From: a candidate division WS1 bacterium
GTDB lineage: Bacteria; Armatimonadota; Zipacnadia; Zipacnadales; UBA11051
Length of the DNA stretch: 64,000 bases
Assembly: GCA_012518355.1 (NCBI GenBank)
Contig: JAAYSP010000072.1
Span: 7,644 to 71,643, forward strand
Direction of reading: 5' to 3'
The notes under the pieces were generated by a model. It was not told the origin of the DNA and did not search any database. It saw nothing but the letters and a program-made list of their open reading frames with translations. Below are positions 2,086 to 61,216 of this stretch, piece after piece (position 1 is the stretch's first letter; every line of letters begins with the position of its first letter). The translations under genes and the position numbers were made by a program.

Positions 2086-2088
2086 TAC

Positions 2089-2288: not shown

Positions 2289-2297
2289 ATTATTTCA

Positions 2298-7053: not shown

Positions 7054-7077
7054 TGCCTGCTACCGGCTTGCGCTTAC

Positions 7078-8649
7078 TCAGCCTCCATTTTTCAACAGAC
7101 CATAGATCAGCGAATCGACTACTGCCTGCCAACTGGCCTCGATGATGTTTTCGTGGACACCGACAGTGCCCCAGCTATCCTCAGCGTCGGCGGTCTGCAC
7201 GAGCACACGTACCGCCGCTTCAGTGCCTTCATCAGCGCGCAGCACTCTGACCTTGTAGTCCACAAGACTCAGCTCTTCTAGTTTCGGGAACAGTTCCGTC
7301 AATGCCTTTCGCAGTGCATTGTCGAGCGCATTCACTGGCCCGGTACCCTCGCCGGCGGTGTGTACTTCTCTGTCTCCGACGGCTACCTTGAGAGTAGCCT
7401 CAGAGTACGGTTCGCTGCCCTCATCAGCTTTGTAGACGGTAATCCGATAGCCGTGCAGGTCAAATGGAGGTAGCAGGCCCTCCTTCAGGCGACGTGCCAG
7501 AAGCTCAAATGTAGCCTCCGCTGCATCAAATTCGTACCCGCTCTTCTCTAGATTCTTGACCTGCTCCAGTACTGTGGCCACCAGGGGGTCGTCACGCTGA
7601 AGATCAGGCCAGATACGTTGGAGCTTGTGCACGATGGTGGAACTTCCGGAGTAGTCCGAAACCAGGATGCGCCGACTGTTGCCCACAGTTTCAGGCTCTA
7701 CATGCTCAAACGATGAGGGTTCTTTCAGCACCGCGTTGACATGCATGCCTCCCTTATGGGCAAAAGCAGATGCCCCGACGTACGGCTGTCGAGTGTCGGC
7801 AGGGAGATTGGCGATCTCGCTCACGAAATGCGCCAACTCGGTTATCTCGGTCAACTGGCCTTCTGGTAGGCAAACTGTGTCCATCTTGAGCTCGAGGTTG
7901 GGGATGATGACACACAGGTTCGCGTTGCCTGACCGCTCGCCGTAGCCGTTGATGGTGCCTTGCACCTGGCTGCAGCCCGCCTGGACTGCGGCCATACTGT
8001 TGGCCACGGCCAGACCGGCATCGTTGTGACAGTGTATGCCAAGTGCAATCTGGCACTCTGCGGCTACCGTCTCGACGATCTCACGTATCTCATCGGGCAG
8101 TGAGCCACCGTTGGTGTCACACAGCACCAGTGCATCCGCACCGCCTCGCTGTGCGGCTCGCAAGCACTCCAGAGCATATGCCGCATCAGCTTTGTAGCCG
8201 TCAAAGAAGTGCTCAGCATCGAACATCACCTCTTCACGATGAGCCTTGAGGTAGGCGATGCTGTCCTCGATCATCTGCAGGTTTTCATCCAGAGAGACAC
8301 GCAGCACTTCAGTGGCATGGAAGTCCCAGCTTTTGCCGAAAATGGTGATGACTGGTGCGCGGCTTGCCAGCAAATCCTGAAGTTGGCTGTCGTCTTCGAC
8401 GTTGATGTTGCCTCGTCGAGTGCTGCCAAATGCCGTGATGCGCGCGGTTTGCCAGGACATATCAGCGGCACGCTGGAAGAATTCGCGGTCACGAGGATTT
8501 GTCTCGTTTGGCCAGCCGCCCTCGATGTATGCAACGCCCACTTGATCCAGCTTCTGCGCGATGCGCAGTTTATCCTCTACGCTGAATGCCACACCTTCTG
8601 CCTGGCAGCCATCGCGGAGAGTGGTATCATATACGTCAACTCTTTTCAT
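7078..8649 (-). CDS. cimA: (R)-citramalate synthase, Geobacter type (LeuA/HCS superfamily)
   Basis: MKRVDVYDTTLRDGCQAEGVAFSVEDKLRIAQKLDQVGVAYIEGGWP N-terminus and about 520 aa length match GSU1798-type CimA; AGGAGG SD 8 nt upstream of the ATG at 8649. Confidence 0.85.
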   Translation of the reverse strand: MKRVDVYDTTLRDGCQAEGVAFSVEDKLRIAQKLDQVGVAYIEGGWPNETNPRDREFFQRAADMSWQTARITAFGSTRRGNINVEDDSQLQDLLASRAPVITIFGKSWDFHATEVLRVSLDENLQMIEDSIAYLKAHREEVMFDAEHFFDGYKADAAYALECLRAAQRGGADALVLCDTNGGSLPDEIREIVETVAAECQIALGIHCHNDAGLAVANSMAAVQAGCSQVQGTINGYGERSGNANLCVIIPNLELKMDTVCLPEGQLTEITELAHFVSEIANLPADTRQPYVGASAFAHKGGMHVNAVLKEPSSFEHVEPETVGNSRRILVSDYSGSSTIVHKLQRIWPDLQRDDPLVATVLEQVKNLEKSGYEFDAAEATFELLARRLKEGLLPPFDLHGYRITVYKADEGSEPYSEATLKVAVGDREVHTAGEGTGPVNALDNALRKALTELFPKLEELSLVDYKVRVLRADEGTEAAVRVLVQTADAEDSWGTVGVHENIIEASWQAVVDSLIYGLLKNGG

Positions 8650-8701
8650 TTGTCTTTCCTCCTGGATACGCCGGGGCCTTTTCGGCTGCGATGTCACCGC
8701 T

Positions 8702-8743
8702 GAAACACAAAACTCCGTCCCTGTTCAATTCAGAGACGGAGTC
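8702..8743 (-). terminator. intrinsic terminator of the T-box leader: stem ACTCCGTC/GACGGAGT followed by UUUUGUGUUU
   Basis: Inverted repeat plus U-tract read on the reverse strand, 52 nt upstream of the cimA ATG. Confidence 0.7.
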
Positions 8744-9018
8744 ATCCGCGGTACCACCCTGGTTACTCCCCCCCGAAAAGGAGGAGCCACTTTGCCAACA
8801 CGGGCCACCTGCGGCCGATGTCGTCTTCAGGATAACGGTAGAAGCTCCGACGAAGTCTACTCGGCCGCCTGTTGTCGGCCAGGCCTTTCGATTCGCAGCT
8901 CGAGGGTGATATTCAGATCGGACTTACCTGCCCGCTCTCACCATCCGGGCTCGCTGTCCGGTATAAACCGACCCTACTTGTCCCCTTCACAGCTTTTACG
9001 TGTCACGACTTAAATTGT
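8702..9018 (-). promoter_or_regulatory. T-box riboswitch leader (tRNA-sensing transcription attenuator) upstream of cimA; candidate specifier AUC-A (Ile) at complement 8908-8910 (CUC-G Leu alternative at 8902-8904)
   Basis: Canonical T-box sequence AACCAGGGTGGTACCGCGG (complement 8746-8764) immediately 5' of and overlapping an intrinsic terminator; about 315-nt leader length; amino-acid biosynthesis gene downstream. Confidence 0.75.
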
Positions 9019-41965: not shown

Positions 41966-42295
41966 CTATCCCGCAATAACCTTGTCCAGGCTCGAAGCCA
42001 GGTCTTCTTCGGAGTGCACGCCGACTATCGTCTCAACAATCTCACCGTTGTTGAAGATGGCCATGAAGGGAATTGCACGAATCTGATACTTCTGAGCCAG
42101 CTGTTCGTTGCTGCCATCAGAGATGTTGACACGAGCAATCACGGCCTGGTCACGGTACGTCTCGGCAACCTTATCCAGCACTGGATGCATCATCATACAC
42201 GGGCCACACCAGGGGGCCCAAAAATCCACCAGTACTGGTTTTTCAGCCTGCAAAACCTGTGCATCAAAATCTTCATTTGTGACATCAATCGGCAT
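41966..42295 (-). CDS. trxA: thioredoxin
   Basis: WCGPC active site; 109 aa; AGGAGGA SD. Confidence 0.9.
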   Translation of the reverse strand: MPIDVTNEDFDAQVLQAEKPVLVDFWAPWCGPCMMMHPVLDKVAETYRDQAVIARVNISDGSNEQLAQKYQIRAIPFMAIFNNGEIVETIVGVHSEEDLASSLDKVIAG

Positions 42296-42412
42296 GAGAT
42301 TATCCTCCTGACCATTTGCGTTATACTATAGGCTATAGTTGGTGTAACAGTATGACATAACGACATTTGAGCTGATCTTTGTTATCGAAACAGGCAAAGC
42401 ATACACAGCATC

Positions 42413-42988
42413 TTATTGTGACAGAGTTTTGGTGATTGCGTTGTTCAACTGCTGCTCGATGTCCGGCGCAAGCCCCTCCCACCTGTCAATCACTGTACCA
42501 TTGGAGAAAAGTAGCACCGTAGGTATCGCGCGGATCGAGTACTCAGAAGCCAACTGTGGTTCGTCATCTATATCAACGCGCCCCATGATTGCCTTCCCGG
42601 CAAACTCACTGGCCAGGCCGTCCATAATTGGGTGCATTTTTTCACACGGCCCGCACCAGGGGGCCCAGAAATCCACCAGAACAGGTGTCGAAGCGCCAAG
42701 AACGCTGTCCTGGAATGACGCTGTGGTGAAGTCAACAACTGCAGCTTCCGCCGCGCTCTCTTCGGCCTCACCAGCACTGTCTACCGCCTGTTCGGCCTCA
42801 GGTGCTTCCGCTTCTTCGACGGGAGACGGTAGTGGTGGCAGCTCGGCTTCAACGCCGGCGACATCTGTTTTTCCCGGGCATCCCGAAATCGCAAATGGCA
42901 CCACGAGAAGCAGCATGGCTATCAGTAGACCTGCGAGTGGCCTCGCACATCGAGACCGCCTGAAAGTATCGTACCAGGTAGATATCAA
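42413..42988 (-). CDS. membrane/lipid-anchored thioredoxin with acidic Ala/Glu linker
   Basis: Lipobox-like AISGC, then WCGPC thioredoxin domain. Confidence 0.75.
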   Translation of the reverse strand: MISTWYDTFRRSRCARPLAGLLIAMLLLVVPFAISGCPGKTDVAGVEAELPPLPSPVEEAEAPEAEQAVDSAGEAEESAAEAAVVDFTTASFQDSVLGASTPVLVDFWAPWCGPCEKMHPIMDGLASEFAGKAIMGRVDIDDEPQLASEYSIRAIPTVLLFSNGTVIDRWEGLAPDIEQQLNNAITKTLSQ

Positions 42989-43068
42989 TTCCCTACCTCC
43001 TTGTGACTAAATCGTAGAATTGGGCAATTCTACCACCTTTGCACACTTGACGCAACTGCAACACCACC

Positions 43069-44127
43069 TCAGACATGGATTGCCTCGTAAGCAGTGTCGT
43101 ACATAGCCACGATGTTTTCCGGTGGGCTGACCGCCTGGATGTTGTGGCATGGGGCCAGGATGTATCCCCCTCCGCAACCGAGGGTAGCCAGGTTATCGAG
43201 CACTTCCTGACGCACCTCATCCACAGTGCCAAAGGGGAGTGTGTACTGATTGTCCATCGCTCCGTGAAAGACAATCTGATCGCCGAAGTCGCGCTTGAGC
43301 GCTTCTCGTTCCATCCCTTCGCAACGCCACTGCACCGGGTTGAGCACATCCATGCCGATCTCGATCATATCCGGTATCACTTCGCGCACCGCACCGTCAC
43401 TGTGATGGAACACGTAGGCTCCTGCGTCATGAACCAGGTCCATCATCCGCTTCATCCGTGGCAGGAGAAACTCGTGCATGTGACTGCGCGACATCAGAAG
43501 TGACTGCTGCGTACCGAGGTCCTCGGCCACGTAGCTGAACAGTACTTTTCCCGGTATTTGCTCGAAGATGCGTTCCGTACTTTTGTAGCATAGGTCGAAT
43601 AGTCTGTCCAAACAGTAGTGGACGATATCGGGGTGAAGCACCAGATCCATCAGGGCCTGCTCCTGCCCACGCAAATGGCAGTAGGTTAGGAACGGTTCGG
43701 AGCCCCCACCACGTACAGGGCAATCAGGGAGCTGATCAGTCTGCGCGGGAATGTGCGTATAGTTCCACCAATCAGGGCTGGGCCAGCGGTACTCAGAGTC
43801 TATCTGACTTACGGTCTCAAATTCGGCCAGAGGATGAAATACGCATTCTCGATAGCTCCCCGTGGCGTAAGCGACATCGCGATAGCCGCAGCCGAACACG
43901 TCAAGCTCGGGGCTGATCGGCGGCCCGACATAGCGGCCGGAAACAGCCACCACACGATCTATGTGGAGTCGCTCATACAGTTGGCTGTGGTTCTGCAAGT
44001 CCAGATGATCGAGCAGTTTCTTCGTCGCTTCCGGAGTTGCCCAGTAGTCAGTTGGGACCCTATCTGTTGGCTCTCTTTTCAGCACAGCCATCCAACGCTC
44101 TCTGGGCGTCATCTGTTCTGTGGCCAT
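43069..44127 (-). CDS. uroporphyrinogen decarboxylase (URO-D) family protein, MtaA/CmuA-like
   Basis: URO-D fold length and composition; start at the ATG at 44127 with a GAGGTGA SD (the ORF-track start at 44253 has none). Confidence 0.7.
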   Translation of the reverse strand: MATEQMTPRERWMAVLKREPTDRVPTDYWATPEATKKLLDHLDLQNHSQLYERLHIDRVVAVSGRYVGPPISPELDVFGCGYRDVAYATGSYRECVFHPLAEFETVSQIDSEYRWPSPDWWNYTHIPAQTDQLPDCPVRGGGSEPFLTYCHLRGQEQALMDLVLHPDIVHYCLDRLFDLCYKSTERIFEQIPGKVLFSYVAEDLGTQQSLLMSRSHMHEFLLPRMKRMMDLVHDAGAYVFHHSDGAVREVIPDMIEIGMDVLNPVQWRCEGMEREALKRDFGDQIVFHGAMDNQYTLPFGTVDEVRQEVLDNLATLGCGGGYILAPCHNIQAVSPPENIVAMYDTAYEAIHV

Positions 44128-44569
44128 GTGTACTATCACCTCACGCGGAGATCGAAAGCTGTTATCACTACATGGTGGCATGGATTCACTGACAGACTTG
44201 AGCAGATGTTGCAGGCATGGTATCATCATTTCAGATGTGTGCATAGTAGACACTGGATGCCGCGCAGATGATCGTCACTCCTCGGCCTATCTCCACGCTT
44301 GACCTGTCAGGCGGTGGCTGTAGACCGGCAAACAGCTGTATCTCGTCCCCTGGCATCTTGTGTCGCGACCAGATACAGAACTACTCATGCAAATGCTATC
44401 TGATTTACTTCTCCAGTGGCATAGCCATCAGCCACTGCTTTACGCTGCCGTGACCGTGCTTTCGATGGTCGGGCTCGGCACGCTCTTCGCCCTGCTGACT
44501 AACTGGACGAGCGCGCGCAATCGGCCGTCTACCCGCAATTCACAAGAGCCCGATGCCGGTGATAAGTAA

Positions 44570-45613
44570 GTGCATTTCCCGATAGCCGGAGTAACGGTCA
44601 ACCCGTACTATCTGATCGGCCTCGGCGTATTGGTCGGTGTATCCGGCGGCTTTATGGGCATGGGCGGCGGTTGGTTGCTAGTGCCGGCCTTGAGCGCTCT
44701 GGGCACACCGATGAACATAGCAGTAGGGACATCCCTTGCCCAGATGCTGGGTGCTGCCATCGTGTCAGCGATGCGTCACTGGCAGTTTGGCAACATATCA
44801 TTTCGCATCGCGACAATCATGATCCCAGGCAGCCTGCTGGGAGTGGAGTTCGGAGCGTTCATCATCGAACTGCTCAAGGGGCAGGGACCTACCCAGGTTG
44901 ACTTCGGCATTGGTGTGACTTTTGCAGGCATTCTGACCCTGGTATCGCTGTTCGTCCTCCGCGACGCGCTGAAAGACTATACCAGAGCACGGCAGTTGGC
45001 CGCGTCTCATCCAGGTGACAGCATCCACAAGTACCATGTGACCCCGGTTCGTCCTATCCCCCGTCGCCTGCAGGCCATCAAGCTCAAGCCTTGCATCGCC
45101 TGCCCCATCTCGGGCATAGAATCGATTTCAGTTTGGGCAATTCTGGCCGTAGCATTCATCATGGGCACACTCACCGGACTGCTCGGCATCGGTGGAGGGC
45201 TGGTCGGGTTGCCACTACTGGTCTATGTCATCGGCGTGCCAACTAGAGTGGCAGTAGGCACGGTAGTTCTCACCGTAGTGGTGGCCTCAGGGTTTGGTAC
45301 CTTTTCACATGCATTGAAGGGAAATGGTGACCTGTTGATGGCGCTGTTCATCTTCATCGGCGCCGCGATAGGCTCACAAATTGGCGCCCTGGCCACACGT
45401 TATGTGTCGGGCATCTTCATCCGTGCACTTTTCGCCGTGGCTGCCCTTGGTGCAGCGGCATCCGTAGTGCTGAACACCTTTCTGGGGCTGCGTACCGCGG
45501 CTCTCGTCGTGGTACTGATGGTGGGCGTACTCACGTGTGCACTTATCATCCAGCTACTGTTCACTGGCCTGTTACGTTCGCGCCGTCAGAGGCTAGACAG
45601 CAATTCGCCATAG
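44570..45613 (+). CDS. TauE/SafE-family (DUF81) anion exporter
   Basis: Duplicated 4-TM repeats with GxGGG motifs; GTG start. Confidence 0.75.
   Translation: MHFPIAGVTVNPYYLIGLGVLVGVSGGFMGMGGGWLLVPALSALGTPMNIAVGTSLAQMLGAAIVSAMRHWQFGNISFRIATIMIPGSLLGVEFGAFIIELLKGQGPTQVDFGIGVTFAGILTLVSLFVLRDALKDYTRARQLAASHPGDSIHKYHVTPVRPIPRRLQAIKLKPCIACPISGIESISVWAILAVAFIMGTLTGLLGIGGGLVGLPLLVYVIGVPTRVAVGTVVLTVVVASGFGTFSHALKGNGDLLMALFIFIGAAIGSQIGALATRYVSGIFIRALFAVAALGAAASVVLNTFLGLRTAALVVVLMVGVLTCALIIQLLFTGLLRSRRQRLDSNSP
45521..45613. repeat. direct repeat copy 1 (about 93 bp, about 90% identical to 45870-45962); encodes the TauE C-terminus
   Basis: Read directly in sequence. Confidence 0.8.
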
Positions 45614-45869: not shown

Positions 45870-45962
45870 GTGGGCGTGCTCACGTGTAGTACTTATCATC
45901 CAGCTACTGTTCACTGGCCGTTACGTTCGCGCCGTCAGAGTCTGGGCAGCAATTCGCCATGG
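45870..45962. repeat. direct repeat copy 2; its reverse strand encodes the C-terminus and stop of the ECF T component
   Basis: Read directly in sequence. Confidence 0.8.
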
Positions 45963-46735
45963 CCTTGCAGGCGCAACCATATGCTTAGAGCTGCCGCACA
46001 AACGATCAGTACCATAGCTCCTACATCGGCCCACCTCACGGCAAATGTACGCAACTCAACGCGCCTGGCAGTAGCCATGAGTCCACGTGCTTCCAGAGCG
46101 CGCGACAGGTTGTCGGCCTGCCTTAGCGCATATCCGAATACTGGGGCGGCAAGGCTCAGATATCTACGTAAACGTGTCATCAGTCCGCCACTATCCAGAT
46201 CCAAACCGCGTGCGCGTTGAGCATCCTTCACAGTCTGCACCGTCGCGAGGAAGCTGGGCAGCAGTCGGAATGCAAGCGACAAAGCTACTGACATACCGCC
46301 TGGCAGCCCCAGCCTGCGCAACGCAAAGGTGAAGTCTTCGGGACGGGTGGTAGTCACAAACACCAGGCCGAACACCAGTAGAGCGGTAATTCGGCAGCCC
46401 ATCGCCACTCCATAGAGTACAGATTGCTCAGATATAGTCAGCGGGCCCAGTTCTGCCAGCACGTGTGGCTCCTCGACATCCAGCAGGAACAGTGACCACA
46501 TAAGTGAAGCCATGATGAACAGCACGACTAGAAACGCGCCTAACTGACGCAAGTTTGGCTTCCCCCCTGCCGCAATCAGCAATAGCAGGGCAACTGCGAG
46601 AACTACGGCCTCCCACAAAGGAAGATTGAAGGCCATAGCAGGGACAAAAAGCAGGATCAGCCCCAACAGCTTCACCACGGGGTGCAACCGATGAATAGCA
46701 GTGTCAGCGCTGATGAAAAGAGAACTGGTTTGCAT
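45935..46735 (-). CDS. ecfT: ECF transporter T component (EcfT/CbiQ family)
   Basis: CbiQ-family transmembrane architecture; ATG at 46735 after AAAGGAA. Confidence 0.8.
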   Translation of the reverse strand: MQTSSLFISADTAIHRLHPVVKLLGLILLFVPAMAFNLPLWEAVVLAVALLLLIAAGGKPNLRQLGAFLVVLFIMASLMWSLFLLDVEEPHVLAELGPLTISEQSVLYGVAMGCRITALLVFGLVFVTTTRPEDFTFALRRLGLPGGMSVALSLAFRLLPSFLATVQTVKDAQRARGLDLDSGGLMTRLRRYLSLAAPVFGYALRQADNLSRALEARGLMATARRVELRTFAVRWADVGAMVLIVCAAALSIWLRLQGHGELLPRL

Positions 46736-46797
46736 ACGTATTCCTTTCAATCGCTCCAGACGGCACCAAACAACACGGCAATCAATCCCAGGTCTCG

Positions 46798-49377
46798 CTA
46801 GCTCAAACGCACATACTCGCCGAATTCTTCCGGGCTCAAGAGTGGCACTCCAAACAGGGCCATCGAAATCTCGACCACCGCCGGTATACGCTGGCAGGCG
46901 GCCTGCAGAGCCCTCTCATCTGCTACCACATCGCGCACCGCACCATCAACCACCACCTGTCCTTCCCGCAGCAAAATGAGCCTGCTTGCGTAGCGCATAG
47001 CCATCTCTGTATGGTGTGTGACTACGATTATGGTATGGCCTTGTGTCTGCAATTGACGCAACAGTTCCATCATGGCCTCTTGCTGCGGGACATCAAGGCC
47101 GGTGGTGGGCTCGTCAAACACTATGATGCCGGGTTCGCAGGCCAAAATGGCTGCCAACGCTACGCGCTGTCTCTGGCCTCGGGTCAGTGCGAATGGATCA
47201 GCGGTCTCGAGGCCCACAAGCTCAGTGACTGCTATAGCGTCGGCTACCAACCGTGTGACCTCCTCGCGGCTGCGGCCGAGGTTGCGCGGCCCAAACGCTA
47301 CCTCATCGAAAACCGTGTCGGCGAAAATCTGGTTGTCAGGGTTCTGATACAGATAGCCAATCTGAGATGCCAGGTCGGTTACACTCATAGCTGCAACGTC
47401 ACGTCCGTTCACCTTCACAGTGCCCTGATGTGGTGTCAACAGGCCCATCATCAGCTTGCACAGAGTGGTCTTGCCCGAACCGTTGGGCCCGAGAATGGCG
47501 ACGAACTCACCCTGCCGCACCTGCAGCGATACCTTCTGGAGAGATGCAGGACCGCCATAGCTGTGAGAAACCAGGTCAACAGCGACGGCTTCACCGCCTG
47601 CGAAGGGCTCGCGCTCACTATCGCGTCGCCTCGTCAGAGCAGGCTCATCCAGCACTGCCGCACAATCACGCAGCGTGCGCACTGCCTCCGCGGCTGTCTC
47701 CGGCACATCGGGCAGGCCGACGGCTTGCGCTATCTCGGCCAGTGGATGGGGCCGCAAGCCAACGGCTCGAGCACGTGCCACATCTCTAAGCAAGTGGCCG
47801 CAGGCTCCGTCATACGCGACAGCCCCTTCGCTGAGGACCAGCAGAGGGTCTGTGCCTGTCCCGTGCGTCGGATCATCTGTAGCCAACAGAATGGTGCGCC
47901 CCTGAGTCGCTAGGCTCTCAACGGCGTCTATAACTTGAGCTCGACCCAGGGGATCAAGGTCAGTGGTCGGCTCGTCAAGCACCACTATGGGCGGTTCGGC
48001 AGCCATCACTGCAGCAAGCGCCAGGCGTTGTTTCTCGCCTCCTGACAGTGTAATCGGATCGCGTCCCAGCAGATGCCCAAGCCCCAGCGTGTCGAGCCAG
48101 TGATTTACTCGCTCACGCATAGCCTCTCTTGGTACTCCACGGTTTTCAAGCCCGAACGCGATCTCCAACTCTACATCGCTGCAGAAGAGTTGGGTCTCGA
48201 AATCCTGAAACACCAATCCCGCAACTTGAGACAGGTCATCCACCGATTGCGACCTGGTGTCCTGACCTCCAATGTGCACGGTTCCAACAAAATCACCGGA
48301 CTGCATGTGGGGGATCACGCCGTTCATGCACAGGCACAGCGTAGATTTGCCGGCACCTGTTCGCCCCATGAGTAGGCGCATTTGGCCTGACTTTTGCCGG
48401 AAGCTGACTTCATGTAGTGCCGGGGTGATGCTGTCACCATAGGCAAAATGCAGGTCAGAGACCGCTATCACACCATCGCTTACATCGGTAGGCTTTTCGT
48501 CTGACACTCCAGCAGTAGTAGCCTGCGAGCGCCTCGAACCGATTCGAGCCATCAGTGAACTACCCAACACGATTAGCAGACTACACCACATACCTAGCTC
48601 TCGAAGCGACATTTCTGCGGGCATTAGCAGAGACACCGGGATGGGTTTACCGTCAGCATCTAGAGTCGGCTCCAGCGTGAGCATCCCCAGTTTGCTCCCC
48701 CAGGAAGCGAGTGCGCCGGTCTTATCGAGTGCTGCAAACACACCCACTATGCAGGCCGCCATCAGGACAAGCCCGGCAATTGGCGTTATCGGCGTCGTCT
48801 TGATGTCGTCCTCGTGCATAATCTGTGAGTACGTCAAGTTCCATTTATGCGCTCGCGGATACATCAGTATCAGCAGAGGGATGCCGAGTACGATTCCCGC
48901 AATGCTATTGTTGATAGTGATGATGCTCGTGAGCACAACATATGGCACGAGACCCAGCAGATCCAGTCCGGTGCCGATGACGACTGCACAGGCAGCGCTA
49001 CCAAGGAAAATCACCAGTACCAGTAGAGGCACTTCCCGCCAGGTACCTCGGGGTGGGTTGAAACCCTTGAACATAACCCACAGCCTATATGGCACATAGG
49101 CGAAGAGGAAATTGCCAATCAGGCCGAAAAAACTGCCTGGTCCCACGGTACCAAAAAAATCGGCCATGAGATTGCCGATAGCACATCCCCATGCCGCCGC
49201 TGGTCCAAACAGTAGCCCGCAGACTACAGGGATTGCGTTACCGGGCCGCAACTCCGTGAAACCCGGGACGATCGGGATGATTTTGAACGGTATCAAAATC
49301 GCCGCATAGATGGCCGCTGAGAGGGCCACGAGCACCACCATCTTGCTGCTGCGCCACATCACAAGCACATCTCGCAT
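46798..49377 (-). CDS. ECF transporter triple fusion: N-terminal S-component-like membrane domain (about 280 aa) plus two ABC ATPase domains (EcfA-EcfA')
   Basis: Two complete sets of Walker A (GRTGAGKST, GPNGSGKTT), signature (LSGGEKQR, LTRGQRQR) and Walker B motifs after a 6-7 TM domain; GAGGAG SD before the ATG at 49377. Confidence 0.8.
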   Translation of the reverse strand: MRDVLVMWRSSKMVVLVALSAAIYAAILIPFKIIPIVPGFTELRPGNAIPVVCGLLFGPAAAWGCAIGNLMADFFGTVGPGSFFGLIGNFLFAYVPYRLWVMFKGFNPPRGTWREVPLLVLVIFLGSAACAVVIGTGLDLLGLVPYVVLTSIITINNSIAGIVLGIPLLILMYPRAHKWNLTYSQIMHEDDIKTTPITPIAGLVLMAACIVGVFAALDKTGALASWGSKLGMLTLEPTLDADGKPIPVSLLMPAEMSLRELGMWCSLLIVLGSSLMARIGSRRSQATTAGVSDEKPTDVSDGVIAVSDLHFAYGDSITPALHEVSFRQKSGQMRLLMGRTGAGKSTLCLCMNGVIPHMQSGDFVGTVHIGGQDTRSQSVDDLSQVAGLVFQDFETQLFCSDVELEIAFGLENRGVPREAMRERVNHWLDTLGLGHLLGRDPITLSGGEKQRLALAAVMAAEPPIVVLDEPTTDLDPLGRAQVIDAVESLATQGRTILLATDDPTHGTGTDPLLVLSEGAVAYDGACGHLLRDVARARAVGLRPHPLAEIAQAVGLPDVPETAAEAVRTLRDCAAVLDEPALTRRRDSEREPFAGGEAVAVDLVSHSYGGPASLQKVSLQVRQGEFVAILGPNGSGKTTLCKLMMGLLTPHQGTVKVNGRDVAAMSVTDLASQIGYLYQNPDNQIFADTVFDEVAFGPRNLGRSREEVTRLVADAIAVTELVGLETADPFALTRGQRQRVALAAILACEPGIIVFDEPTTGLDVPQQEAMMELLRQLQTQGHTIIVVTHHTEMAMRYASRLILLREGQVVVDGAVRDVVADERALQAACQRIPAVVEISMALFGVPLLSPEEFGEYVRLS

Positions 49378-49512
49378 CTACGGCAACTCCTCATCGATAT
49401 GAACTGGTCTTCGCGTACGAAGTCAGTATTCCACTCCGAGACCGCCTTTCCCTGTCTGTTGCAGCTAATAAACCAGGATGTTTACCTATTGACCTTGCAT
49501 ACTGGTGGATTT

Positions 49513-51603
49513 ATGGGCTTACTTACGGCTTTTTGCGCCGCCTGGAGGCAAACCGTAAAACGGCGTGGAGGAATTATCCGTACTAAGGGCGAAGTGGCTC
49601 CTGCCGCAGCAAGTACCGTATTCCGTTGCATTGCTGGAGGACTTGGCGTGACGTCTCGCACTCTGCTTCTATCGGTTGTCCTGGCTCTGGCTGCGATAGC
49701 GTGGATGCACCAGGCCAGTTTGGTACAAACCCCCGGACAGATATATGCTCCGGTGTACCTTCTTTCGGTGCCTCCGGTGCCGGCGATTTTTTGTCTACTG
49801 CTACTGGTGATCTTGGCACCTGTGCTGCCTCGACTAAGTAGGAAGCTCAAAAGCTTCAGCAAACAAGAGATGCTGCTGATATATATGGTCCTCGTAGTCG
49901 CTGTTCCGCCGGTGACTTTCGGCGTCGTCTCCAGTATGCTTCCGGCAGCATCGGCAGCAAATTACTTTGCCGCCCCTGATAACAACTTCCAGGCACTGGC
50001 CGACAATCTGCCGAAGTGGTTCGCTCCTCAGAATCCAGAGATCATCCGCACCATGTATGAGGGCAGCCCGGATGGCACCATCCCCTGGCGGCAGTGGGCG
50101 TATCCTCTGGCGATGTGGACCGGTTTCATGGCTCTGCTTTATTTCACAGGTCTATGCCTGGTCACGATTTTCCGCAAGCAGTGGTCTGAAAACGAACGGC
50201 TTCGCTACCCACTGCTTTTCATACCTCTGAGCATCGTCGAGAAAGAGGCACCGGGAAGCCACACGCAGTTTTTTCGCAATTCGCTTGTGTGGATGGGGAT
50301 CGGCATCGTGGTACTTCACCACGCTCTAAACATAGCCAATGCCTATAACCCCGCAGTCATGGCACTGAAGGACCGCTACGGATTGGGTGCACAGATCTTC
50401 ACCGAGTACCCGTGGACCGCGTACCGAGGCATCACCTTTTTCCATAGACCACAGGTCATCGGTCTGGCCTACTTCGTCCCCCTCGACATACTCTTTTCCG
50501 GGTGGTTCTTCTTTCTCCTGCAGCCCACTCTGCGACTGATTTCCGACCTGTTCGGCTTCACTGCCTCGGCGGGTTTTCCCCACACCCTGCCGCAATCTGC
50601 GGGGGGCTACGCAGGCATGACCCTGATACTGTTCTGGGTAGCACGCCACGAAATCGTGAAAATGCTTCGCAAAGCTTTCGGAGGCGACCGCAGCATTGGC
50701 GATTCCAGTGAGCCGATGTCACACCGTGCTGCACTCATCGGAGCTCTGGGCGGTATGCTGGCGATAATCATATGGGTAAGCGCGATGGGAGCCAACTGGG
50801 CCCATGCTACAGCCTACTTTCTCATGGTCGTTGGCTTTGGCCTGGTATATGCTCGCATACGTGCAGAAGCTGGCATACCTACCATGTGGGGCTATTTTGG
50901 CGGCCATGTGCGTACGCTAAGATACTTCCTCGATGTACGACAAATCATGCCCCAGAGCTCTCTGTCCAACCTGGCTGTCCTGACGTCTTTCGACTGGCTG
51001 ACTGAGGGCTACTTTCCGGGCCAGTGGGGATATGTGGCAGAAAACCAGAAACTGGCTGAAGACATCAAAATCAAGCCTCGAATTATCGTGCCTGTGATGA
51101 TGGTTGCCTTCGTCCTGGGCTGTGTTTTTGCATACTACCTGATCCTGCAATCGTACTATACATACGGCGCCATGGTATTGCATGGCGGCACCACTCGCGG
51201 CGGATATGCGATTATCAACGCAGTGAACGCCTGGACTCAGGCGTCATCTATGGTAGACACTGGAGGTGCGCCCAACCGAGAGTACGCCATCGCCATGATT
51301 AGCGGTGCCGCTTTAACCGTTCTCCTGGTGCTGGGCAGATGGCGCTGGCTGCGGCTGCCCTTTCACCCCCTCGGGTATATCTCCTGCATCCAGTACGGGT
51401 ACTGTCTATGGGGGCCGTTTTTCGTGGTCTGGATCATCAAGGGCCTGGTGCACCGGCTGGGAGGGGCACGTCTCTATCGTCAATTGATGCCGTTTTTTCT
51501 CGGACTTGCATTTGGGGATCTACTGTGTGGTGGCATAACCTGGATTCTCATGGCGCTTTTGGGCCCTGATATCACAGCGGGTTACATGGTGCAGTTCGGA
51601 TAG
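49513..51603 (+). CDS. hypothetical large polytopic membrane protein (about 697 aa)
   Basis: Long hydrophobic ORF divergent from the ECF gene; start set at the internal ATG at 49513, because the ORF-track ATG at 49399 is only 21 bp from the divergent gene and is followed by rare codons. Confidence 0.55.
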   Translation: MGLLTAFCAAWRQTVKRRGGIIRTKGEVAPAAASTVFRCIAGGLGVTSRTLLLSVVLALAAIAWMHQASLVQTPGQIYAPVYLLSVPPVPAIFCLLLLVILAPVLPRLSRKLKSFSKQEMLLIYMVLVVAVPPVTFGVVSSMLPAASAANYFAAPDNNFQALADNLPKWFAPQNPEIIRTMYEGSPDGTIPWRQWAYPLAMWTGFMALLYFTGLCLVTIFRKQWSENERLRYPLLFIPLSIVEKEAPGSHTQFFRNSLVWMGIGIVVLHHALNIANAYNPAVMALKDRYGLGAQIFTEYPWTAYRGITFFHRPQVIGLAYFVPLDILFSGWFFFLLQPTLRLISDLFGFTASAGFPHTLPQSAGGYAGMTLILFWVARHEIVKMLRKAFGGDRSIGDSSEPMSHRAALIGALGGMLAIIIWVSAMGANWAHATAYFLMVVGFGLVYARIRAEAGIPTMWGYFGGHVRTLRYFLDVRQIMPQSSLSNLAVLTSFDWLTEGYFPGQWGYVAENQKLAEDIKIKPRIIVPVMMVAFVLGCVFAYYLILQSYYTYGAMVLHGGTTRGGYAIINAVNAWTQASSMVDTGGAPNREYAIAMISGAALTVLLVLGRWRWLRLPFHPLGYISCIQYGYCLWGPFFVVWIIKGLVHRLGGARLYRQLMPFFLGLAFGDLLCGGITWILMALLGPDITAGYMVQFG

Positions 51604-51867: not shown

Positions 51868-51903
51868 AAAGCCCTTCCCGTGGTATTACACGGGAAGGGC
51901 TTT
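51868..51903. terminator. palindromic intrinsic terminator (AAAGCCCTTCCCGTG-GTATTA-CACGGGAAGGGCTTT), with a U-tract on the reverse strand 3' of tRNA-Asp
   Basis: Perfect 15-bp inverted repeat; TTTTCGTGTTT follows on the reverse strand. Confidence 0.7.
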
Positions 51904-51912
51904 AGTATACGT

Positions 51913-51991
51913 TGGCGGGGCTGACGGGACTCGAACCCGCGACTTCCACCTTGACAGGGTGGCACTCTAAAACCGACTGAGCTACAGCCCC
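51913..51991 (-). tRNA. tRNA-Asp (anticodon GTC), CCA encoded
   Basis: Acceptor GGGGCTG/CAGCCCC, anticodon loop CTGTCAA, T-loop TTCGAGT; close to E. coli tRNA-Asp. Confidence 0.85.
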
Positions 51992-52142: not shown

Positions 52143-52669
52143 CACCATCTCTTCCGCCCGTGCCTGCATCTGTAGCTACATCATATGGGCGGCAAGTGTC
52201 TGCTCTTAGCCTGGGCGCAAGTCAAGGGGGCGACCTTGAAGTTGCTAAGAACAGACCAGGGTAGTAGACTGCATGTGAAGCTATGTCTAAGATGCAAGCA
52301 TTGTTACTATACAACCCTGCACGCAGTATAGTGTAGCTTTAGGCTGCTGTCAAGTACAGTTTTCTACGATAGCATCACAGGAACCAATATGCTCATCAGG
52401 TAACATGGCGGCTGCTGTGCGTAGTTGAATGCAACAAAACTCGATGCATTCCAACCGCCAGTCATCGGCATTTGTGCCGAGAAAATCGGTGCTGGACATA
52501 TGGCTGCCACTTTACATGGATTTTCTACGGCTTTCCTGTTATACTTGCATATCAAGGAACTGCCTGGTCACACCTGTACGTTAGGGATAATGGCACGGGC
52601 TTGCTACTTTTCGTGTCTAACGTTCGAAGGCTGGGACATACTCTTCATACTGATGGGAGGTGTTGGATC

Positions 52670-53614
52670 ATAGGCCTGGCAATTGAGACGGAGAAGCTTA
52701 GTAAGATTTATACACATGACGCAAATGGTCAACCGGTCGGGCTGATAGATCTGTCACTTGTAGTAGAGGAAGGACAGATTTTCGGTTTGCTGGGGCCCAA
52801 CGGTTCCGGCAAGACCACAACGCTCAAACTGCTCCTCGGACTAATTTTTCCTACTGCGGGTAGAGGCCAGGTGTTTGGCCAGCCGCTGGGCAGTAACACC
52901 TACAAGCAGCGCATCGGTTTTCTGCCCGAGGGGCCCTACTTTTACGAGCATTTGAACGGTGTGGAGCTATTGCAGTTCTACGGCAGCCTGTTCGGCATGG
53001 GTGGCAGCGCACTGTCTGCACGCATCGAAGAGCTGCTCAAGCTGGTGGGCATGTGGGACCGGCGTTTTATCCGGGTTCGCGACTATTCTCGAGGCATGCG
53101 CCAGAGAATAGGAGTGGCCCAGGCGCTCATAAACGACCCCGACCTTCTGTTTCTCGATGAGCTCACATCAGGGCTCGATCCAATTGGCGTCGTCGACATG
53201 CACCACCTGCTAACGGATCTGCGAGACATGGGCAAGACCCTCTTTGTCTGCAGCCACCTGCTCAAGGACATGGAGCCACTTTGCGACCGAGTGATCATCC
53301 TCAACAGAGGCAAAGAATGTCGCACCGGTACGGTGGATGAACTGCTGCGAGTGGCTGACCAGGTACGCTTGGTCCTGTCCAACTGGTCTGATGAGCTGAA
53401 AACCCGGCTGGCGACCTCCGCAGCCGATTGTGAGGTGGCCGACAAACAACTGATCTGTCACTTCCAGGATCAGAGCCAGGCGTTGGCAGCCGCGACAATC
53501 GCCGTGGAGGCCGGCGCGGTCATCGAGGATCTTGGTGCCCGCCGCCGCACTCTCGAAGAAGTATTCATTGAAGCTGTGGGAGGCGAGGAACCATGCGACC
53601 AATCTTCAGAGTAG
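52670..53614 (+). CDS. ABC transporter ATP-binding protein (ABC-2 exporter type); start codon uncertain (non-ATG)
   Basis: Walker A GPNGSGKTT, signature, Walker B and H-loop motifs; no ATG/GTG/TTG near the expected N-terminus (AIETEKLSKIY); GGGAGGTG SD at 52655-52662 is followed by ATC/ATA/CTG candidates (an in-frame GTG at 52613 has no SD). Confidence 0.75.
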   Translation: MGLAIETEKLSKIYTHDANGQPVGLIDLSLVVEEGQIFGLLGPNGSGKTTTLKLLLGLIFPTAGRGQVFGQPLGSNTYKQRIGFLPEGPYFYEHLNGVELLQFYGSLFGMGGSALSARIEELLKLVGMWDRRFIRVRDYSRGMRQRIGVAQALINDPDLLFLDELTSGLDPIGVVDMHHLLTDLRDMGKTLFVCSHLLKDMEPLCDRVIILNRGKECRTGTVDELLRVADQVRLVLSNWSDELKTRLATSAADCEVADKQLICHFQDQSQALAAATIAVEAGAVIEDLGARRRTLEEVFIEAVGGEEPCDQSSE

Positions 53615-54405
53615 CTCGAGCCACCTTCCACGAAGCATGGCGACGCAGATTTCTTAACGGAATCCTGATTTTTGCCATCCTCATCATCGGCTCATCATGG
53701 GCTTTCGCATATCTACAGCCCGGAGCCGAACTGCAGATGGTAATTGACATTGGCCTCGGCTCCATCCGCTTTTTCGGAATGTTGATTGCGGTGTTCCTCG
53801 GAACCAGATTGGTGCCTGACGAGATTGAGCTACGCACGATTCACACCATATTGGCCAAGCCAGTCAGCCGTGCACAGTTTCTATTCGGCAAATATCTGGG
53901 TGGCGTAGGCACCTTGGCGGCTAACATGCTGCTGATGGGCGCCGCATTCTATGTGGTGTTCGCCATCAAGGCGCCGCAATTTCTTGCCGAGAAGCCGGAA
54001 GATGCGATGATTGTCGCAGCGATGTATTCCAACATCGCTAAGGCCATACTGCTGACTTTCTTTGAAGTCTTCCTAATACTAGGCATTGCTGTCGTTGCCG
54101 CGACGCTGTTCTCGTGGGTGCTGTCAGTGATCTTCACATTTGTCTTCTACTTCGTGGGCCATATGAGCGACTTTTTCCAGCAGCTCTCCGACCCGGAACG
54201 TGGCGCCTCGAAAATCGCCCAGATAGTCATGGGTGCGCTATACCGTATTCTGCCTCACTTCGAGATCTTCGATATCCGCGAGGCAATTCTAATGGGTACA
54301 TATACCCCCTGGTCGGTGATGTTCAAGACCATCGGCGAAGGTGTAGCGTATCTTGTAGTGGTATTACTTATCGGTTATCTCGTGTTCAACGAACGCGAGG
54401 TCTAA
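53593..54405 (+). CDS. ABC-2 family transporter permease
   Basis: 6-TM ABC-2 topology; ATG overlaps the ATPase gene end by 22 nt with a GGAGG SD. Confidence 0.8.
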   Translation: MRPIFRVARATFHEAWRRRFLNGILIFAILIIGSSWAFAYLQPGAELQMVIDIGLGSIRFFGMLIAVFLGTRLVPDEIELRTIHTILAKPVSRAQFLFGKYLGGVGTLAANMLLMGAAFYVVFAIKAPQFLAEKPEDAMIVAAMYSNIAKAILLTFFEVFLILGIAVVAATLFSWVLSVIFTFVFYFVGHMSDFFQQLSDPERGASKIAQIVMGALYRILPHFEIFDIREAILMGTYTPWSVMFKTIGEGVAYLVVVLLIGYLVFNEREV

Positions 54406-54423: not shown

Positions 54424-55473
54424 ATGAAGCTGTATCGAATTGTCGGTTGGCTACTGGCTATCGCCATGCTGTTTGCCATCCACCCGCTGGATCAAAGCTT
54501 GCAGTACGATCGCCTTGTTCTGGGGCTTCGTCAACCGACGCCGTGGTTTCAGATCGTCGCACGGGCATCTGGAGGCGACACAGAGCTCGCCGTTACCGGT
54601 GTGACTGGCGTGATAGTCGGAGCGGCCCTGGGTGGTTTCCGCGAGGTAGCCGCAAGCATGCTTTGGATGAAGACCCACGAATACTGGCACAAGGGACACG
54701 GTACACAGGCGAAGGCTCTCTGGCTGATGCGCTTGGTCACGCTGCTGGATCCACACTGGCTGGAGCCATGGCGCATCACTGCCTGGCACCTGGCCTACAA
54801 TCTATACGTAGAGACCGATGACCCTGCATTGCAGGCAAAATATCTGCAGATGGGCGTGGAATGCCTGAAAGAGGGCATCTCATGGAACCCCGATAGATAC
54901 GACCTCTATCTGGAGCTTGGTTGGACTCTCTTCGACAAGGTCAAAGACTATGAAGAGGCACCCAAATGGTTCCGTGCCGCTATGCGCTATCCGCATCCCG
55001 AGTATGTGGACCGTCTGGTAGGCCATGCGTATGAGCGCATGCCTGACATACCCCGTGCCCTCGATGCCTACGACTACTGCATGAAGCGCAACCCTCTTGA
55101 CCAGACTGCAGTAGGCGCTACGCTGACCATACGCGAACGGTACCTGCCGGCATGGGATCTGGCAGAGCAAGGGAGCTACGACGAAGCGTTGGACGCAATC
55201 AACGAATATCTATTGGCCCAGCCTACCAGCAGCCTTGGCCTACATGTCAAGGCTCATATTGCCGAACAGGCAGGGCAGTTGCGGCTGGCCTATGATACGT
55301 GGTCGCTTGCTGGCAACCTCTCAGCGCTGGACTTCCTGGCTCAACGAAAAGCTGTGGAGCTCGCTCAGAGACTGGGCATCCCGGTCGAAGAAACACCACA
55401 GCACATATACATGCAACGTACCGGGAAAGAGATGAAGGCAGGGAGTCCCGACCGTGACCGGTTGAGCCGTTAG
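54424..55473 (+). CDS. hypothetical membrane-anchored protein with TPR-like helical repeats, co-transcribed with the ABC-2 transporter
   Basis: N-terminal TM helix; 18-bp gap from the permease gene. Confidence 0.55.
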   Translation: MKLYRIVGWLLAIAMLFAIHPLDQSLQYDRLVLGLRQPTPWFQIVARASGGDTELAVTGVTGVIVGAALGGFREVAASMLWMKTHEYWHKGHGTQAKALWLMRLVTLLDPHWLEPWRITAWHLAYNLYVETDDPALQAKYLQMGVECLKEGISWNPDRYDLYLELGWTLFDKVKDYEEAPKWFRAAMRYPHPEYVDRLVGHAYERMPDIPRALDAYDYCMKRNPLDQTAVGATLTIRERYLPAWDLAEQGSYDEALDAINEYLLAQPTSSLGLHVKAHIAEQAGQLRLAYDTWSLAGNLSALDFLAQRKAVELAQRLGIPVEETPQHIYMQRTGKEMKAGSPDRDRLSR

Positions 55474-59687: not shown

Positions 59688-61145
59688 TTATTCGGCGCGA
59701 GGCCGTCGAGAAAAAGGGGCCATCACCAACTGCATAGCGGCCCGACTGTTGCGCGCGGCATGAAGGCGCGCCAGGGTGAACGGTCGGCTTGCTCCGGGGG
59801 TGGTGTCCGGGTCAGCCAGCACTGGTATGGCATGGATTTGCAACCCGGCAGTATGGGTCTGAATATGAGCATCCAATTGCTCTCTGAATTGATGGGCATC
59901 GGCCGTTACACTGAGCAGTTCGGCCTCCAGTTGTGCCAGCTCATCAGTGGTCATCCCCCGCCTCTGCGTCCGGTACCTATCGTTGAGTGTCCACCACTGC
60001 TCCAGTAGCTCAGTCAACTGTTCGCCGCTCTCCTGCTTGAATGCAGATTCATCCAGCACTGACCACACACGCAAGGCGCCAGCCAGTGCTGTCTCCAAAT
60101 CCCCCAACGCCATTCCCACTGGCGGCAGCATCACCGGATACGGCGGAGTGCGACTGATGGTTCGACCCTCGGCATCGGTCAGTGAAAACTGGACCAGATT
60201 AGCTCCATCTTGAGCGATTCTATAGGGCACCCTCACCGTCTCAGTCTTACCTGGTGTGATGCTGATCTTCTCGGCCCCATAGTAATCGCCGTAACTTGTC
60301 GGCGCAATCAGGCGTACGTTTGCCTTGCCGGTAAATGTCGCAGCACTGTTGTTTTTGACGGCCAGCACCGCGGTATTTTCGCCCAGACTGCGAACACCCA
60401 TAGTGGCCATCTTCATGCTGGCAGACTGGGGCATAAACATGAGCTTTCCGAGACTCTCAAATTCGTGGAAATCTCTCAGTATTCTGGTCGAACAGCTTTT
60501 CTCATCCATATGTGGCACGAATCGGCCTGCAGCAAATCCCCAGACGGCCCCCGGTGATGGGGCAATAGCACCTTCAAAAGGCAGTGTCAGCTCTGCCGAC
60601 CATCCCGACTCCACTGTGGCGGTTTTGACCTCCCAACGGTAGTCAACTGTACTATCATGATCGAGAGCATCATAGCGTGTGCCTGCGGGGTTAATAGCAA
60701 GATGAATGTATTTGTCACCGGTGTCACTCGGATCGAAAAATAGCTGGAGACAGTCGTCTTCACAAACCAGGCCGTCGCGGACGGTGGCCTCTGACTTGAT
60801 CTTATCGGGCTCAGGATCGTGCATGATGGCACCAATGTATAGCTGTTCGTCATCATATCCAACCCATATTTCAGTCTGGGTCTTCGGCTCACTCTGCCCG
60901 CCCAGCAAGATTAAGCCACTCATGGCCCCAGCGCCGGCCCACTCTTCGGGCTTGACCAACCCATCTATAGTAGGAGGATGAGGCATGACTGGAGCAGTGA
61001 CCAACGGAGGTGTGAAAAAGACCCTCTGTTGGGCTTGGGCTGTGTGGAATGGAATTAGGATGATAGCTAAAGCGACTGCGACTATACTGTAGCGCACTTG
61101 TCGCACCTCCCCATAGCGGGCTGATGCCCGATTCATTTGCTGCAT
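59688..61145 (-). CDS. secreted protein with CBM9-like (DOMON-like) carbohydrate-binding domain
   Basis: Signal peptide; WVGYDDEQLYIGA...DCLQLFFDPSDTGDKYIHLAINPAGTRYDA resembles CBM family 9. Confidence 0.5.
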   Translation of the reverse strand: MQQMNRASARYGEVRQVRYSIVAVALAIILIPFHTAQAQQRVFFTPPLVTAPVMPHPPTIDGLVKPEEWAGAGAMSGLILLGGQSEPKTQTEIWVGYDDEQLYIGAIMHDPEPDKIKSEATVRDGLVCEDDCLQLFFDPSDTGDKYIHLAINPAGTRYDALDHDSTVDYRWEVKTATVESGWSAELTLPFEGAIAPSPGAVWGFAAGRFVPHMDEKSCSTRILRDFHEFESLGKLMFMPQSASMKMATMGVRSLGENTAVLAVKNNSAATFTGKANVRLIAPTSYGDYYGAEKISITPGKTETVRVPYRIAQDGANLVQFSLTDAEGRTISRTPPYPVMLPPVGMALGDLETALAGALRVWSVLDESAFKQESGEQLTELLEQWWTLNDRYRTQRRGMTTDELAQLEAELLSVTADAHQFREQLDAHIQTHTAGLQIHAIPVLADPDTTPGASRPFTLARLHAARNSRAAMQLVMAPFSRRPRAE

Positions 61146-61216
61146 CTTGCCAGGTGGCGAAACACCGAAAATAGGAGTACAACCGTCTCTGGCACTGTTG
61201 CTGAGGCCCACACTAT

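Follow-up and report, generated by a model that had tools for sequence, protein, structure and literature searches.

A dedicated energy-coupling factor importer with S, A, and A' fused in one polypeptide is predicted in Armatimonadota and Nitrospirota

INTRODUCTION

Can the S component of an energy-coupling factor (ECF) transporter be joined permanently to the ATPases of its own module and, if so, what would such a transporter carry? The question is raised by a stretch of 64,000 nucleotides from a candidate division WS1 bacterium (phylum Armatimonadota), which we refer to as the window and in which an open reading frame (ORF) of 859 aa (46798-49377, minus strand) lies between ORFs of 271 aa (45935-46750, minus strand) and 734 aa (49399-51603, plus strand). 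A first-pass annotation described the three products as an ECF transporter with the S, A, and A' components in a single chain, the corresponding T component, and a divergent membrane protein with which the transporter was said to be paired. Such a fusion touches on a debate about the ECF mechanism, namely, whether the S component is expelled from the module or topples in place, for which a natural S-A-A' fusion is a ready-made tethered variant. S swapping is a property of ECF systems with a shared module (group II); the dedicated transporters of group I include systems with a tandem-fused ATPase, e.g., those of the YkoEDC type.

Here, we present an analysis of the fused gene, its relatives, and its neighbors. 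We consider it likely that the locus encodes a self-contained, dedicated (group I-like) ECF importer of two polypeptides with a methylthioadenosine (MTA)-type substrate, and that the divergent gene, which encodes a DUF6785 protein, is merely syntenic with it. Far from being a rarity, the fusion is found lineage-wide as a recurrent variant of dedicated ECF modules.

RESULTS

An S component is fused to two ECF-type ATPase domains

In Pfam scans, residues 15-172 of the 859-aa protein matched QueT (PF06177; 58.2 bits, and 58-60 bits across scans, against a cut-off of 33.7) and the ECF-ribofla_trS model (PF07155) scored 29.4 bits (cut-off 26.7), with the two matches together spanning residues 10-172. 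C-terminal to this domain, there are two ABC_tran stretches, and the NCBIfam models ECF_ATPase_1 (TIGR04520; 405 bits, cut-off 315) and ECF_ATPase_2 (TIGR04521; 392 bits, cut-off 330) each matched the protein in two stretches. All of these scores exceed the cut-offs and bear out the initial description of an S-like domain joined to two complete ATP-binding cassette (ABC) ATPase domains. The layout of the protein and the coordinates of all features are given in Table 1.

An AlphaFold2 model of residues 1-295, based on an alignment of 75 sequences (pLDDT 87.5; pTM 0.85), contains a six-helix core followed by two further helices with a short periplasmic hairpin between them. Among the 13 PDB matches that this model gave in Foldseek with a probability of at least 0.35, 12 are ECF S components, headed by RibU of T. 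maritima (probability 1.0; TM-score normalized to target 0.67) and including ThiT, FolT, PanT, and the S chains of 4huq and 4hzu; with weak E-values (0.04 and above), these matches back up the Pfam result and are not independent proof of it. When the S alignment was used as a profile against the sequences in the PDB, no relative of this S subfamily emerged. The AxxxA motif in helix 1 of S components has been associated with docking on the ECF module (PMC11109136). Its residues A21, A25, and A26 do not vary among 15 diverse sequences; among the 75 sequences of the alignment, A26 is invariant and A21 and A25 are at least 90% conserved. In addition, the S core has 48 invariant residues in common with unfused homologues, and the polar intramembrane residues K32, E42, R44, N69, D73, N89, N156, and N157 are invariant across the 75 sequences, which include the window protein and orthologues linked to MTA salvage (see below). 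Positively charged residues follow transmembrane helix (TM) 6 (YPRAHKW) and TM8 (RIGSRRSQ), arguing for an N-in, 8-TM, C-in topology and, consequently, for cytoplasmic nucleotide-binding domains (NBDs). TM7 and TM8 are also present in unfused homologues of 260-275 aa and are absent from the fused form of Nitrospirota.

Based on the Pfam score above the cut-off, the fold matches, and the AxxxA motif, we conclude that the N-terminal domain is indeed an S component of the ECF type. Its classification by profile and by structure agrees, and the adjacent T gene and the operon-encoded orthologues likewise speak against a leader or an unrelated insertion. The first-pass annotation was, therefore, right about the identity of the domain; the six to seven helices that it had counted are eight, i.e., the six-helix core and two extra helices.

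One ATP site is canonical and one is degenerate

We compared 120 fused proteins with 37 unfused AA' proteins, and the signature motif of NBD1 is the canonical LSGG(E/Q) in both sets. That of NBD2 is degenerate in all 120 fused and all 37 unfused proteins, mostly as LTKGE or LSKGE and as LTRGQ in the window protein. The H-loop His of NBD1 is replaced (D501) in the window protein and its close relatives and retained in 86 of the 120 fused proteins. Hence, the site composed of the Walker motifs of NBD1 and the signature of NBD2 is degenerate, and the site composed of Walker A, Walker B, and H788 of NBD2 and the LSGGE of NBD1 is fully canonical. From these motifs, we infer an ATP cycle with one active and one degenerate site. 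In searchable papers, we found no report of such a one-consensus/one-degenerate arrangement for ECF transporters.

The T component is encoded directly downstream

The gene directly downstream of the fused gene belongs to the CbiQ/EcfT family (PF02361, 116.7 bits) and encodes a T component with ARG motifs at residues 180 and 221. The ORF begins with TTG 46750; ATG 46735 is the more likely start, as it is preceded by a Shine-Dalgarno sequence and yields a protein of 266 aa, as in the orthologue of locus L001 (the loci of our survey are designated by L and a number). Depending on the start codon, the fused gene and the T gene are 47-62 bp apart. The T gene had been placed correctly downstream of the fused gene, but the gap of 48 bp given for it is 47 bp from TTG 46750 and more likely 62 bp from ATG 46735. 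At other fused loci, a T gene follows the fused gene wherever the downstream sequence suffices. No gene for a solute-binding protein adjoins the ECF genes, based on the window ORFs and the Pfam scan. An S fold with the AxxxA motif, a T component with two ARG motifs, and two ECF-type NBDs together identify the predicted system as an ECF-type importer, uptake itself being a prediction.

The fusion is authentic and recurrent and occurs in a minority of its family

We used the whole protein as the query against sequences from NCBI, JGI, ENA, and Logan and analyzed the 120 best clusters at 90% identity among the matches listed, which range from 97% down to 38% identity to the window protein. QueT and two ABC_tran domains are combined in one chain of 753-896 aa in 119 of these clusters, which are from Armatimonadota and Nitrospirota (the named sources being Armatimonadota, Zipacnadales, and Nitrospirota), and the linker region is in frame in every one of the 119. 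Moreover, an independent Logan assembly encodes a protein that is 97% identical and also 859 aa long. The shared architecture and this independent copy exclude that a sequencing frameshift artificially fused two genes. In the source databases, the fused proteins are labeled "energy-coupling factor transporter ATPase" or "ATP-binding cassette domain-containing protein," and the S domain is unmentioned.

A search with the S domain only revealed a large family of stand-alone proteins of ~260-275 aa that are 50-58% identical and occur in Clostridia, Spirochaetes, Halanaerobium, and other groups. In a scan of one genome per species, at least 591 genomes have a relative, the best match being a metagenome-assembled genome of Candidatus Zipacnadia (Armatimonadota; 83%). 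The gene is fused in 13 of the 80 best species-level loci, namely, in 12 loci of Armatimonadota as the long form and in one locus of Nitrospiraceae as a short form without TM7-8; the Nitrospirales locus L003 also has the short form. Among the 150 best clusters (E ≤ 1e-30) in a HMMER search of 50%-identity representatives, 11 fused proteins of at least 750 aa and two possible partial fusions were found, corresponding to ~8% of the family diversity. Thus, the fusion is a minority form of a wider family. These searches confirm that the fusion is real, as first annotated, while its supposed rarity does not hold, given at least 119 clusters at 90% identity and 11-13 of 150 representatives. In the searchable literature, including searches for QueT with fusion and for single-polypeptide ECF transporters, we found no description of an S-A-A' fusion.

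Two gene orders prevail among the unfused loci: AA'-T-S in Firmicutes, Spirochaetes, Synergistetes, and Rubrobacteraceae, and S-AA'-T in NC10, Binatia, Latescibacterota, deltaproteobacteria, and some Armatimonadota. Neighboring genes of the S-AA'-T loci touch or overlap one another, as in L037 (S at 3-938, AA' at 935-2662) and L048 (S ending at 10780, AA' starting at 10782), so that the loss of one stop codon would be enough to fuse S and AA'. In a neighbor-joining tree of S domains (unbootstrapped; ~185 residues), the fused forms of Nitrospirota lie beside unfused NC10 sequences, an unfused subclade of Armatimonadota is nested among fused ones, and one fused sequence lies near Latescibacterota. 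Together with the two architectures, this tree suggests that fusion or fission occurred more than once.

In ~66 of 86 loci, S and T genes are no more than a few kb apart, and most of the other loci are on short contigs or at contig ends. In most loci with sufficient flanks, S shares an operon with its own AA' and T genes, i.e., the module is dedicated (group I-like), and S fusion, therefore, costs no modularity. The earlier argument that ECF systems keep S separate for swapping applies to group II only.

Gene context of unfused orthologues points to an MTA-type substrate

The neighbors of S genes were clustered in 84 loci, with families in at least five loci counted as recurrent and with spurious antisense ORF clusters (clusters 8 and 9) from high-GC loci (NC10, Rubrobacter) disregarded. 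Besides AA' and T, the recurrent families are an MTA phosphorylase (18 loci; TIGR01694, 272.8 bits, just under the cut-off of 274.85; the protein passes the sister model for S-methyl-5'-thioinosine phosphorylase, NF006599, with 246.7 against 223), the methylthioribose-1-phosphate isomerase MtnA (15 loci; TIGR00512, 445 bits), methionine gamma-lyase (15 loci), an amidohydrolase resembling 5'-deoxyadenosine/MTA deaminases (11 loci), a class II aldolase (11 loci), and a GntR/UTRA regulator (9 loci). MTA phosphorylase, MtnA, and class II aldolase are the enzymes of MTA salvage and of the dihydroxyacetone phosphate (DHAP) shunt for 5'-deoxynucleosides. The MTA-salvage-linked loci number ~21, all of them unfused and from Firmicutes, Spirochaetes, and related lineages, with S domains that are 53-59% identical to that of the window. 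In these unfused orthologues, an AA' protein of ~570 aa, a T component, and an S component of ~265 aa are encoded together with MTA-salvage genes.

Because the unfused orthologues cluster with genes for the salvage of MTA and 5'-deoxynucleosides, MTA or a related 5'-deoxynucleoside is our candidate substrate, an assignment by orthology and gene context that we think has an even chance of being correct. A substrate class can thus be proposed, although the first-pass annotation had held that none could be deduced from the sequence. The DHAP-shunt/MTA gene cluster of E. coli carries its own transporter gene (PMC12632272). In the Nitrospirales locus L003, a 5'-nucleotidase gene (6318-7868; Metallophos and 5_nucleotid_C) is directly upstream of the short fused gene on the same strand, which fits a nucleoside substrate. 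We also observed T-box leaders a few kb downstream of unfused S genes, within MTA/methionine-salvage clusters, in two loci of Clostridia (L013, 12398-12693; L021, 9188-9447).

The intergenic region contains a conserved promoter-like block and no riboswitch

With the corrected start of the divergent gene (see below), the intergenic region upstream of the fused gene is 270 bp long, rather than the 20-135 bp from which interleaved promoters had been proposed; in the loci L009-L011, it spans 236-264 bp. An Rfam search of 49330-49700 gave no match at E ≤ 1 and, at the gathering score, the only Rfam matches in the whole window are a T-box leader and tRNAs elsewhere, with no riboswitch near the ECF genes, in agreement with the first-pass annotation. 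A sigma-70 consensus scan of the intergenic region gave no promoter. A block that is conserved in the window, L001, L007, and L008 (Table 1) occurs once in the window, ends 49 nt before the start codon of the fused gene, and is present whether the upstream gene encodes a DUF6785 protein or a GHMP kinase. With its extended -10-like sequence, it is a probable promoter or operator of the ECF operon; if it is the promoter, the leader would be ~40 nt long and, thus, too short for a riboswitch.

The divergent gene probably encodes a remote OPT/YSL-type transporter

The homologues of the divergent gene product are 648-654 aa long and begin at the residue matching V84 of the 734-aa ORF, which corresponds to GTG 49648, and GGAGGA (49636-49641) lies upstream of this codon. 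GTG 49648 is, thus, most likely the start of the gene, and we rejected the 734-aa reading. In Pfam, the protein matches DUF6785 (381 bits) and DUF6784 (76 bits). Its AlphaFold2 model (pLDDT 91.4) matched barley Yellow Stripe 1 (7wst) over the whole chain in Foldseek (E 4e-9; TM 0.67/0.72), although the two proteins are only 13% identical; the next PDB match has an E-value of 7e-3 and a TM of 0.1. The window protein does not reach E ≤ 1 with the Pfam OPT model, while a family member from Armatimonas rosea (P0318) passes it (36.3 bits against 25.8) and is named OPT/YSL transporter in NCBI. Based on the fold match and this family member, we conclude that the neighbor is a predicted remote OPT/YSL-type secondary transporter. 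The initial description as a divergent membrane protein was accurate, but neither the size of ~700 aa nor the assignment to an unknown family was. Our literature search on DUF6785 returned nothing relevant.

Most matches of the DUF6785 family with an organism name are from Armatimonadota, and the genes occur in several copies; L001 carries a tandem pair, and a single contig of 88.8 kb carries three. In the window and in L008-L011, a DUF6785 gene and the fused ECF gene diverge directly from each other, and a GHMP kinase gene lies between the two in L001 and L007. No DUF6785 relative was found around the other fused loci of Armatimonadota (L014, L023, L024, L036, L047, L072, and L088; upstream flanks of 1-10 kb) or in the sequence around the fused loci of Nitrospirota. 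The adjacency is, thus, clade-level synteny restricted to the clade of the window and no evidence of a functional pair; the co-conservation that a pairing had implied did not materialize beyond this clade.

GHMP-family kinase genes are located at 6645-7658 (minus strand) in L001, 6987-7991 in L007, 9562-10563 in L053, and 5314-6315 in L062, and none is in the window. A distant relative (27-29% identical) is found one to two genes after T in two unfused loci of Armatimonadota. A function of this protein as a sugar or nucleoside kinase is possible but unsupported. As a conserved partner of the ECF genes, the kinase was rejected, since it is present in only four loci, two of them at 27-29% identity.

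Table 1. Features of the fused ECF locus, with positions in the window
Feature	Position	Strand	Basis
Fused ECF gene, 859 aa: S component, TM7-TM8, linker, NBD1 (A), NBD2 (A')	46798..49377	-	ORF, Pfam, NCBIfam
S-component core, residues 1-190, six TM helices; AxxxA in helix 1, residues 21-26	48808..49377	-	PF06177, AlphaFold2, invariant residues
Extra TM7, periplasmic beta-hairpin loop, and TM8; residues 191-280	48538..48807	-	Hydropathy; AlphaFold2 helices 198-217 and 258-277, strands 235-248
Low-complexity cytoplasmic linker from TM8 to NBD1, residues 281-305	48463..48537	-	pLDDT ~55; positive residues RIGSRRSQ after TM8
NBD1 (A), residues ~306-545: Walker A GRTGAGKST, signature LSGGE, Walker B VVLDE, H-loop His replaced by Asp501	47743..48462	-	
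NBD2 (A'), residues ~597-859: Walker A GPNGSGKTT, signature LTRGQ (degenerate), Walker B IVFDE, H-loop His788	46801..47589	-	
Shine-Dalgarno sequence GAGGAG, 9 nt before ATG 49377 of the fused gene	49387..49392	-	Sequence reading
T component (CbiQ/EcfT), probable start ATG 46735; ORF opens at TTG 46750	45935..46735	-	PF02361, Shine-Dalgarno AAGGA, two ARG motifs
Divergent intergenic region, 270 bp, no Rfam match	49378..49647	.	Corrected start of the neighbor
Conserved upstream block AGACARGGAWA-N12-RTGGAATA with extended -10-like TGnAATACT	49427..49457	-	Conserved in window, L001, L007, L008
DUF6785+DUF6784 protein, 651 aa from GTG 49648, predicted OPT/YSL-type fold; not part of the ECF system	49648..51603	+	Pfam, AlphaFold2, Foldseek

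Other features of the window

Downstream of the T gene is a block (41966-45613) that is syntenic with L001 and comprises genes for a TauE-like permease (44570-45613), a member of the URO-D/MtaA-like methyltransferase family (43069-44253), and two thioredoxins (42413-42988, with a lipoprotein-like N-terminus, and 41966-42295); by family name alone, it is sulfur- or methyl-related. A T-box leader (103.8 bits; 8729-8999, minus strand) is directly upstream of a LeuA-like gene (HMGL-like and LeuA_dimer; 7078-8697, minus strand), and five tRNA genes, for Leu(GAG), Val(CAC), Gly(CCC), Gly(GCC), and Cys(GCA), form a cluster at 1904-2372 (plus strand). Just after the DUF6785 gene, there is a gene for tRNA-Asp(GUC) and then a strong terminator with a 15-bp stem (51903-51868), both within 51868-51991 (minus strand). 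tRNA-Asp is a queuosine-modified tRNA; the closeness of this gene to one of the "QueT family" is probably coincidental. The ORFs at 54424-55473 (plus strand; 349 aa), which follows a pair of ABC-2 type exporter genes (52472-54405), and at 59688-61211 (minus strand; 507 aa) lack Pfam matches at E ≤ 1e-5.

DISCUSSION

We suggest that the fused gene and the T gene encode a two-polypeptide ECF importer. According to this model, the first polypeptide would consist of an 8-TM S domain of a QueT-related subfamily, the cytoplasmic C-terminus of which is tethered via a linker of ~25 residues to the tandem A-A' domains, and the second polypeptide would be the T scaffold, whose two ARG coupling helices would lie in grooves of the NBD dimer, as in established ECF structures. 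By binding and hydrolyzing ATP, the single consensus site would topple the tethered S domain against T and thereby move the substrate inward, while the degenerate second site would probably only bind ATP. The covalent link would fix a 1:1 stoichiometry and rule out S exchange. The fusion is likely to have arisen from an S-AA'-T operon with abutting or overlapping stop and start codons, probably more than once, and the DUF6785 gene would encode an independent OPT/YSL-type secondary transporter.

Several points weigh against this model. MTA-salvage genes were found neither in the 64-kb window nor beside any fused gene inspected, so that the proposed substrate rests on 53-59% identity to context-linked unfused orthologues, and the S domain carries the Pfam name QueT, for preQ1 transport. 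The tree behind the independent fusions is the unbootstrapped one described above, and the toppling as well as the one-active-site cycle are transferred from other ECF systems and from the reading of motifs.

The name QueT raises the alternative that the protein is a true QueT, i.e., that it takes up precursors of queuosine (preQ1, preQ0, or queuine). PF06177 is the best Pfam match, the unfused homologues are named "QueT transporter family protein" in NCBI, and QueT and QrtT are established S components for queuosine precursors (PMC11130926). However, the score is modest for a model of 141 positions, and a preQ1 riboswitch is absent from the window (based on Rfam) and from eight loci of the nearest unfused homologues. 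Moreover, no queuosine-salvage family is among the neighbor families recurring in at least five of the 84 loci, in which MTA-salvage genes recur instead, and the subfamily is distinctive in its length of 260-275 aa, its two extra TM helices, and its operon with its own AA' and T genes. We, therefore, regard queuosine-precursor transport as unlikely.

A functional pair of the fused ECF transporter and the DUF6785 protein, engaged either in the co-regulated uptake of one class of compounds or in an import/export cycle, appears very improbable to us. The two genes are directly divergent in five loci and one gene apart in two more, as detailed above, and the DUF6785 proteins are only 54-70% identical across these adjoining loci. 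Nevertheless, the loci with this adjacency all fall in one clade of the S tree, with the other fused loci lacking a DUF6785 relative in the sequence covered; the DUF6785 genes are multi-copy; both classes of transporters are self-sufficient; and the block upstream of the ECF genes is kept when a GHMP kinase gene replaces the DUF6785 gene upstream. Least credible of all is an artifact of assembly or sequencing, or an N-terminal domain that is an unrelated leader or a sensor with an S fold. Stop and start codons overlap in some unfused relatives, so that a single indel could mimic a fusion, and S-fold domains are also found in receptors (PMC11109136); however, the 119 clusters with the same architecture and an in-frame linker come from independent assemblies in four sources, and the AxxxA motif, the adjacent T gene, and the orthology to operon-encoded S components mark the domain as a transport subunit. 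The dedicated two-polypeptide importer accordingly remains the reading that we favor.

The known picture of ECF transport is unchanged by these findings. We tentatively entertain the wider idea, which we think is rather doubtful as it stands, that there is a lineage of ECF transporters in which S is permanently tethered to a motor with one competent ATP site, and that many uncultured phyla also take up exogenous MTA and 5'-deoxynucleosides through this family. If true, such a lineage would provide natural evidence that ECF transport can proceed without the release of S, and structural studies would gain a convenient system of two chains. The tethered variant is conserved in two phyla and in two forms, with and without the two extra anchoring helices, and a transporter of only two polypeptides could serve biochemistry or cryo-EM. 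The analysis also bears on annotation: the label "ECF transporter ATPase" on the fused proteins ignores the S domain, the label "QueT family" on the unfused relatives probably points to the wrong substrate, and DUF6785/DUF6784 may be reassigned to the OPT/YSL superfamily.

Compared with known systems, the transporter is most readily placed beside those of group I, with which it shares that S, a duplicated A-A', and T are encoded together and that there is no solute-binding protein; it differs from them in that S is also joined to AA' in one chain of 859 aa. Rodionov and colleagues reportedly predicted in 2009 an ECF system for methylthioadenosine, MtaTUV (TCDB 3.A.1.33), to which the present subfamily ("MtaT") may correspond; literature searches on MtaT gave nothing relevant. 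With QueT and QrtT (PF06177/PF12822; PMC11130926), the window protein shares the best Pfam match and the 6-helix S core; unlike them, its S domain is ~90 residues longer, with two more TM helices, it has its own AA' and T components rather than a shared module, and neither a preQ1 riboswitch nor a context of queuosine genes was found for its subfamily. Finally, the solved structures of group II systems and their S components (4huq, 4hzu, RibU in 5kbw, ThiT in 3rlb, and PanT in 6zg3) resemble the predicted transporter in the S fold (TM-score normalized to target of 0.49-0.67; probability of 0.9-1.0), in a T component with ARG motifs, and in ECF-type NBDs, whereas in those systems, S is separate and exchangeable and A and A' are separate proteins.

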